Virus record (IMG/VR): IMGVR_UViG_3300018080_005419
DNA: 64,000 nucleotides
Origin: a virus
Strand: one strand, 5' to 3'
In this document: piece after piece, positions 35,318 through 39,550 of the stretch
How the letters are laid out: each line of letters starts with the position of its first letter
Position numbering within the stretch: position 1 is the first letter of the stretch
Translations under genes and position numbers: made by a program
Notes under the pieces: generated by a model
The model's database searches: none
The model's input: the letters and a program-made list of their open reading frames with translations, nothing else
Told to the model about the DNA's origin: nothing

Positions 35318-35387
35318 TTTATCATCCTCCGTTCATATTTCTCCTTTATAATTTAGCGTATTTATTTAATTTTTTCAAGTATTAAAT

Positions 35388-39095: not shown

Positions 39096-39137
39096 AAAAT
39101 AAATACGCTAAATTGTCAAAGAGCCACATTTAAATCT

Positions 39138-39225: not shown

Positions 39226-39314
39226 TGGTCGGTGGAGGAGGATTTGAACCTCCGATCTCCTTGCGGCCTCTTCCTTATCAGGGAAGCGCTCTGACCAGAC
39301 TGAGCTACCCACCG
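39226..39314 (-). tRNA. trnI: tRNA-Ile(GAU) with an expanded variable arm and C1:G72
   Basis: CTTCC-CT GAT AA-GGAAG; 16-nt variable region AGGCCGCAAGGAGATC; CCA encoded. Confidence 0.87.
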
Positions 39315-39336: not shown

Positions 39337-39364
39337 AAAAAAAGCCAACCGTTTTTCGGCTGGC
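39337..39364 (-). terminator. Attenuator terminator upstream of the tRNA array
   Basis: GCCAGCCG-AAAAA-CGGTTGGC followed by T7. Confidence 0.9.
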
Positions 39365-39393
39365 GTTCGAGGGTTTTCTGTTTTTGCGTTTCT

Positions 39394-39489
39394 TTAGTTT
39401 ACAGAACCTCCTCGTTCGCCAGCTAGCCACAGGGCTGCTGCCATAATATCGGCAAAGGGCAAATAAAGTCGGTTCTCTTTATGATTCAC
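39394..39489 (-). CDS. 31-aa attenuator leader peptide MNHKENRLYLPFADIMAAALWLAGERGGSVN
   Basis: GTG start after GGAG; the 3' third overlaps the antiterminator 5' strand; codons 8-23 match the downstream tRNAs. Confidence 0.8.
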   Translation of the reverse strand: MNHKENRLYLPFADIMAAALWLAGERGGSVN

Positions 39490-39521
39490 GGTTCTTTCTC
39501 CAAATAAAAGTATCAAAGCTA

Positions 39522-39550
39522 TTTCTACCACTTATAGACAACAAAGTCAA
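39522..39550 (-). promoter_or_regulatory. sigma70-type promoter of the tRNA-array leader
   Basis: TTGACT-N17-TAGAAA with an upstream TG; shares TTGACTTTGTT with the Thr-leader promoter. Confidence 0.6.

Follow-up and report, generated by a model that had tools for sequence, protein, structure and literature searches.

A probable leader-peptide attenuator in front of a tRNA array of an uncultured giant phage

Leader-peptide attenuators couple the reading of particular codons to the expression of the genes that follow, and some of them are multivalent: the ilvGMEDA and ilvBN leaders contain codons for several amino acids, and a shortage of any one of the corresponding charged tRNAs leads to read-through. 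In the classical attenuators the terminator is favoured at equilibrium and the choice between the alternative structures is kinetic. Leader-peptide attenuation also acts on an aminoacyl-tRNA synthetase gene in the case of pheST with its pheM leader, and T-boxes, which control synthetase or amino-acid genes, bind uncharged tRNA directly, with no translation involved. Further described examples are the pheL attenuator (PMC3082878) and the leader-peptide attenuation of synthetase genes in the Bacillus hisS paralogs (PMC2965389), and in a broad survey of attenuators (PMC2965389) the only genes listed behind leader peptides are amino-acid and synthetase genes. A sequence-only reading of the phage DNA studied here had placed such an element before a tRNA array and knew of no precedent; our full-text literature searches likewise recovered no publication in which leader peptides or attenuators are connected with tRNA arrays or with phage tRNAs. 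Why phages carry tRNAs is a long-standing question, and an element of this kind would make it directly testable.

The window, that is, the whole stretch of DNA analysed, comprises 64,000 nucleotides of the IMG/VR record IMGVR_UViG_3300018080_005419 and is part of a 280-kb metagenomic contig. It has 32% G+C, carries almost every gene on the minus strand and contains 18–20 tRNA genes. The element occupies 39550-39337 of the minus strand, and all of the parts listed by the sequence-only reading (a promoter, a GGAG, a 31-codon ORF, a 1:2 hairpin, an antiterminator, a terminator with seven T residues and a tRNA-Ile) were recovered there without any coordinate having to be moved. The first of these, read directly from the DNA, comprises a -35 region, TTGACT (39550-39545), contained in a 12-mer (39551-39540) for which an exact-match search found only two occurrences in the 64 kb, one per leader (the second is described below), and an extended -10 made up of TG at 39530-39529, one base, and TAGAAA at 39527-39522 (spacer 17 nt). 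A consensus promoter scan did not list the TAGAAA site, in which the final base is A and the conserved T is missing; we accordingly describe it as a promoter-like site with an imperfect -10, and its function as a promoter is inferred. A Shine-Dalgarno motif, GGAG (39501-39498, read directly), lies 8 nt 5' of the GTG at 39489 that opens the leader ORF, which the ORF list gives as 31 codons plus TAA (39489-39394). The leader is conspicuously G+C-rich relative to the genome, and in its entirety folds more stably than shuffled versions (z -2.6).

Three structures can be drawn in this leader, and they differ considerably in their statistical standing. The 1:2 hairpin over codons 17-24 (39440-39420) is present as the earlier reading had it, with a predicted -9.9 kcal/mol, and is statistically unremarkable: its z is -1.6 and 15 of 200 shuffles fold equally well. 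It vies with the antiterminator for the bases at the start of the latter's 5' strand. The antiterminator is an 18-bp hairpin of three helices (39423-39359, -26.5 kcal/mol) with exceptional stability (z -5.97, matched by 0/200 shuffles). Its 5' strand corresponds to codons 23-30, within reach of a translating ribosome, and its apical loop contains the leader stop codon. The intrinsic terminator (39364-39337, -13.0 kcal/mol) consists of an 8-bp stem with 6 G-C pairs and a 5-nt loop (39364-39344, z -4.1), followed by T7 at 39343-39337. Six bases are common to the 3' strand of the antiterminator (39365-39359) and the 5' arm of the terminator (39364-39357), and the two structures are therefore mutually exclusive, as had been proposed. 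By its parts and folds, the trp/thr-type geometry recognized earlier is thus real. The gene for tRNA-Ile(GAU) begins at 39314, 22 nt past the T-run; since this gap is too short for a promoter, the array has to be transcribed through the terminator.

The earlier suggestion to fold the leader with and without a ribosome footprint was taken up. For each A-site codon in turn the footprint was masked and the RNA, ending with the terminator, was folded, a treatment that is at equilibrium and not kinetic. In the absence of a ribosome the terminator probability is about 0.02. Placing the A site at codons 7-8 or at codons 14-18 (Asp, Ile, Met, Ala, Ala) lowers it to about 0, codons 9-13 give 0.5-0.9, the 1:2 hairpin and the terminator prevailing there, and at codons 21-31 the value is at least 0.97. 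The 1:2 hairpin co-forms with the terminator in these folds. A ribosome held in mid-leader thus favours read-through and one that runs to the end favours termination, which is the trp-type logic, albeit as an equilibrium sketch. In the same model termination is the favoured outcome of a pause at codons 9-13 or 20-24, so that some of the matched codons cannot serve as positive sensors.

What the leader spells corresponds closely to what follows it. Its middle part uses Leu, Tyr, Phe, Ala, Asp, Ile and Trp, the amino acids of the downstream tRNAs; 14 of the 16 codons from 8 to 23 are cognate to the 11 intact downstream tRNAs, and every one of their anticodons (11/11) has a cognate codon in the leader. 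Such full coverage was attained by 0 of 300,000 random 31-codon ORFs drawn with the codon usage of the phage (P<3e-6), and the 14/16 count by a fraction of 7e-5 of random 31-codon ORFs. Real genes, sampled in 13,452 windows of sixteen codons, reached at most a coverage of 8 and a count of 13. Among 663 small ORFs from all six frames the leader is the sole top scorer at 11 (runner-up, 9), and in a separate small-ORF comparison only 1 of 983 others equalled it. This correspondence is chiefly one of amino acids. When the peptide is kept fixed and synonymous codons are redrawn, full coverage has P = 0.016-0.02, and the four Leu codons are all distinct, avoid TTA (the favourite of the genome) and fall one to each Leu tRNA; indexing at the level of isoacceptors is only suggestive. 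Isoacceptor-level tuning as a general rule was considered and not retained, synonymous resampling across lineages giving a Fisher P of 0.04 for coverage and no significance for the counts.

A more mundane account would have the leader as an ordinary small gene or small RNA, with a terminator that closes the upstream unit, the tRNAs being supplied by leaky read-through or unrecognised promoters and the codon match being a by-product of hydrophobicity. The middle of the peptide is indeed hydrophobic, the 1:2 hairpin is not unusual, and elsewhere in the window a strong minus-strand terminator (48565-48536), downstream of an HSP20-like gene and 21 nt before tRNA-Gln, has no leader ORF, from which it follows that some tRNAs of this phage are not leader-gated. 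This account has to contend with a codon match that exceeds that of every real-gene window, hydrophobic ones included, with the lack of room for a promoter before tRNA-Ile, and with the leaders of other phages considered below.

The block that an attenuator at this position would regulate extends over 39314-34709 of the minus strand and was delineated with tRNA finders and Rfam. It contains 12 tRNAs, in the order Ile-GAU, Ala-UGC, Ala-GGC, Tyr, Phe, Leu-UAG, Leu-GAG, Leu-CAG, Asp, a tRNA-like gene, Trp and Leu-CAA, with interspersed small protein genes for which no Pfam family was found. A terminator scan detected no further minus-strand terminator inside the block.

Several features of the block deserve mention in their own right. 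The tRNA-like gene (37725-37606, minus strand), missed by ARAGORN, scores 55 bits in Rfam as a full tRNA body, the anticodon loop being enlarged by a 51-nt insert, and its anticodon would be UGG, UAG or UGA depending on the point at which the insert is excised. Class I tRNAs at 39314-39226 (Ile, 89 nt), 39014-38922 and 37872-37793 (Asp, 80 nt), all on the minus strand, have 12-15 extra bases in the variable region, which is unusual for these tRNA identities; extra variable-region bases are likewise seen in another phage (L171) in an Asn tRNA (2164-2251, 88 nt) and a CAU tRNA (2335-2423, 88 nt). A 27-nt inverted repeat (35341-35367 and 39097-39123, 89% complementary, 3.7 kb apart) flanks the block from tRNA-Ala(GGC) to tRNA-Trp and, on a single transcript, would pair as a long-range stalk like that of rRNA operons. 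Finally, a 110-aa protein (38727-38395, minus strand) without a Pfam family is encoded in the tRNA arrays of many giant phages; it has 469 relatives in metagenome contigs, with invariant Asn-Tyr-Glu-Gly and Phe-Glu-Pro-Thr motifs, and its function is possibly tRNA-related.

A second element lies at 27597-27397 of the minus strand. It carries a -35 12-mer identical to that of the element at 39550, and TTGGAATT, which follows the T-run in both, has exactly two perfect matches in the 64 kb. Its 24-codon leader resembles thrL: 7 of 9 residues are Thr, which places it at the top of 1,042 small ORFs, and 0 of 14,817 long-ORF windows exceed 5 Thr in 9. The segments 1:2 (-15.0 kcal/mol), 2:3 (-11.6) and 3:4, the last being the terminator (-12.6) with T6, can all be assigned, each fold having a z below -3.4, and the stop codon falls within segment 2. 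At equilibrium the terminator prevails. Two kilobases downstream, with no intervening terminator, lies a gene for tRNA-Thr(UGU) (25360-25074, minus strand), which escaped both ARAGORN and Rfam and was found by direct reading; its anticodon is followed by an insertion of about 210 nt that splits the gene. This insertion is probably a group I intron, and a search of Rfam at E values up to 1 returned no intron match for it. On the strength of its codons and predicted folds we interpret this element as a putative paralogous Thr-codon attenuator heading an operon with tRNA-Thr(UGU). The same operon encodes a 242-aa protein (24500-23772, minus strand) with PCRF and RF-1 domains, in which the N-terminal portion of release factors is missing, and a response-regulator receiver domain that stands alone (22983-22603, minus strand).

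Conservation cannot be used in the ordinary way for the first element. Its leader occurs in four other assemblies with 100% identity, and searches of viral contigs with exact and gapped DNA patterns yielded no diverged homolog, so support from covariation is impossible; no relatives of the 268-aa and 161-aa upstream proteins were found either. We therefore turned to analogous loci, 160 of which were collected through an alignment of the relatives of the 110-aa protein and scanned for terminators preceded by a small ORF only. Leaders were found in L006, L029, L019, L063/L108, L110 and L161/L163/L165/L166, each mirroring its own array. The L029 leader uses Leu, Ser, Cys and Tyr before tRNAs for Cys, Tyr, Leu (five) and Ser; that of L063/L108 alternates Leu and Tyr before Tyr and five or six Leu tRNAs; that of L110 uses Val, Ala, Met and Pro before tRNAs for Pro, Val, Ala, Ala and Met; that of L161/L163/L165/L166 uses Asn, Gln, Tyr, Glu, Lys, Pro and Thr before tRNAs for Lys, Asn, Glu, Thr, Tyr, Pro and Gln; and that of L019 uses Lys, Arg, Ala, Gly, Thr, Ser, Leu, Phe, Val and Trp, exactly the set of its tRNAs. 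The leaders cover 13/14, 8/8, 11/11, 5/6, 4/4 and 6/6 of the distinct anticodons (combined P = 5e-10, or 2e-8 with the window excluded), and at most loci no other small ORF equals the leader. When eight leaders were set against eight arrays, the true pairing was the best of all 40,320 permutations by three scores. From these comparisons, about eight other phage lineages share the leader-array architecture.

Some of these leaders had been spotted by eye before a blind test was made. A cruder test, which asked whether tRNAs preceded by six or more T residues in a row tend to have a matching leader, was borderline (P = 0.06). Its structure-defined replacement required a terminator together with a small ORF (taken from its longest start) whose end lies 15-40 nt upstream, and at least 3 distinct anticodons downstream. 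These rules yielded 14 candidates, and for 10 of them the match to the array behind them reaches P<0.01 (0.14 expected). A prospective case points the same way: a leader rich in Ile, Asn, Gln and Met near the end of L108 was noted before the downstream DNA was fetched, and that DNA proved to encode Ile-GAU (two copies), Ile-UAU, Asn-GUU (two copies), CAU and Gln-UUG/CUG (three copies). Within a single leader family, L161 (8311-8373) and L163 (7124-7186) differ in that a leader Ala codon and an array tRNA-Ala(UGC) are present only in L161, the tracking of codon and tRNA for Gln and Asn being less clean in the same family.

In 11 of 11 leaders the stop codon lies 21-31 nt from the 5' arm of the terminator, within a search range of -12 to +80, and the overlap of antiterminator and terminator arms is present in most of the 11; every lineage retains the start codon, the Shine-Dalgarno, the open frame and the position of the stop. 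Homologs that retain the hairpins and drop the ORF, which the sequence-only reading had named as grounds for abandoning its proposal, were not seen, the analogous elements keeping ORF, antiterminator and terminator. The peptides themselves are not conserved between lineages as judged by BLAST of the window leader against all fetched loci, which returned only a 21-nt match in the terminator. The account in terms of an ordinary small gene is poorly served by this lack of peptide conservation, by the constant spacing from stop to terminator and by non-hydrophobic leaders, rich in Asn/Gln/Glu/Lys/Pro/Thr or in Lys/Arg/Gly/Thr/Ser, that match their arrays equally well, and we consider it quite improbable.

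Among the candidates examined for common descent, the L006 leader has an N-terminus superficially similar to that of the window leader; BLAST did not support homology, and the two are treated as analogous. When two other leaders were compared with GenBank phages by blastn, no cultured relatives were recovered and only tRNAs matched, and in the tRNA region of phage T5 no matched leaders were found, the small ORFs there being ordinary small proteins. As a separate observation, attenuators of unrelated phages have in common the 3' half of the terminator and a G-T-T-G-G (or a close variant) after the T-run, as seen at 39351-39328 and 27410-27388 of the window, at L171:267-287, and near 2371-2385 in L029 and 2931-2942 in L019. 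Descent of a common cassette and a functional post-terminator signal are both possible explanations.

That the RNA might act alone, without being translated, also has to be weighed. In an untranslated switch, T-box-like or protein-binding, the codon-like triplets would contact tRNAs directly; T-boxes are established sensors of uncharged tRNA by leader RNA, and the present leader is highly structured. Neither the T-box family (RF00230, at gathering score or E up to 1) nor any other Rfam family (E up to 1) matches the leader, a T-box with multiple specifiers is unknown to us, and an RNA-only device does not account for the start, Shine-Dalgarno, frame and stop position being kept in every lineage. 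We regard this possibility as very remote.

A translation-dependent switch of some other kind is harder to set aside, and we nevertheless judge it unlikely. It could report general translational capacity or timing, or it could govern precursor processing or stability rather than termination. The predicted read-through state of the untranslated leader would be in keeping with it, as would the match lying mostly at the amino-acid level and the fact that, with some ten different amino acids in the leader, nearly any translational stress would stall the ribosome. A generic sensor would have no need of a composition that tracks the array of each particular phage, nor of a Thr-only leader before an operon with tRNA-Thr, and a role outside termination sits ill with a strong terminator overlapping an alternative hairpin, an architecture conserved across lineages.

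We are left with a ribosome-dependent leader-peptide attenuator that gates the tRNA array by the speed at which cognate codons are read, an interpretation that we consider likely. Its foundations (the parts, the mutual exclusivity of the folds, the match of leader and array, and the recurrence in other phages) are direct observations, and the earlier proposal that the output is a tRNA array sensed through translation of the leader gains support from the 11/11 anticodons, the Thr paralog and the approximately eight other lineages, the function itself being inferred. Transcription would start near 39550 or enter from the upstream gene, and a ribosome would initiate at the GTG at 39489 and translate the 31-codon leader. 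If reading is fast, the ribosome would cover the long hairpin's 5' strand as it advances from about codon 20 to the stop codon in the loop, leaving the 3' strand free, so that the terminator would form and polymerase would halt at 39343-39337, 22 nt before tRNA-Ile. If the ribosome pauses early for want of a cognate charged tRNA, or if there is no translation, the long hairpin would form first and sequester the 5' arm of the terminator, and polymerase would read into the array. The expected outcome is a demand-driven and self-limiting synthesis of the phage's own tRNAs; this uncultured giant phage thus probably makes the tRNAs of the block only when those codons are read slowly. That the ORF is translated, which way the switch turns and what triggers it physiologically are inferences made in the absence of RNA 3'-end or read-through data. 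An anticodon nuclease or decay of host tRNAs is a plausible trigger, and remains speculation.

It is tempting to extrapolate further, to a picture in which phage tRNA arrays are run by widespread and as yet undescribed sensors of tRNA supply, which turn a block on only when the cognate charged pool falls, so that giant phages replace tRNAs lost to shut-off or defence, in some cases with the resolution of a single isoacceptor, as hinted in the window by four different Leu codons and four Leu tRNAs. We offer this only tentatively, and it may well prove wrong. If the attenuator reading itself holds, phage tRNA arrays would be regulated, demand-driven units in which decoding speed feeds back directly on tRNA synthesis, and leader-peptide attenuation, a device of amino-acid metabolism, would be seen to act on the tRNA pool as well. 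Many 'hypothetical' mini-ORFs of giant phages would become annotatable as regulators, natural and compact sensors of tRNA availability would be at hand, and one could predict from the letters of a genome which tRNAs a phage treats as limiting.

Set beside the known systems, the closest likeness is to the ilv leaders, which likewise combine a short translated leader for several amino acids with alternative antiterminator and terminator hairpins. They sample 3 amino acids and have a biosynthetic output, whereas the phage leader samples about 7-10 and has tRNAs as output; moreover, this leader when untranslated is predicted to be read through, unlike the ilv leaders and unlike the 'superattenuation' of trp. 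The second element shares the textbook layout of thrL, trpL, hisL and pheL, with its Thr run in segment 1, and departs from thrL in being followed by tRNA-Thr(UGU) and a release-factor-like protein instead of threonine biosynthesis genes. With the T-box (RF00230) the first element shares a terminator/antiterminator switch in a 5' leader that would report the state of specific tRNAs. In the attenuators of synthetase genes the same codon-specific stalling raises a translation component for the same amino acid; there the product charges the tRNA, whereas here it would be the tRNA itself, giving a direct loop between supply and demand. Of the defining features of leader-peptide attenuators, a leader ORF with a ribosome-binding site is met structurally (its translation being inferred only), as are a terminator between that ORF and the first regulated gene, an antiterminator that excludes the terminator and has its 5' strand within reach of the ribosome, and codons specific to the operon product, evident in the anticodon coverage, the Thr run and the recurrence. 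An output in biosynthesis or aminoacylation is not met, its place being taken by tRNAs and small proteins without a Pfam family. The structural criteria of the family are therefore satisfied, and the departure lies in the output, which is tRNA genes.
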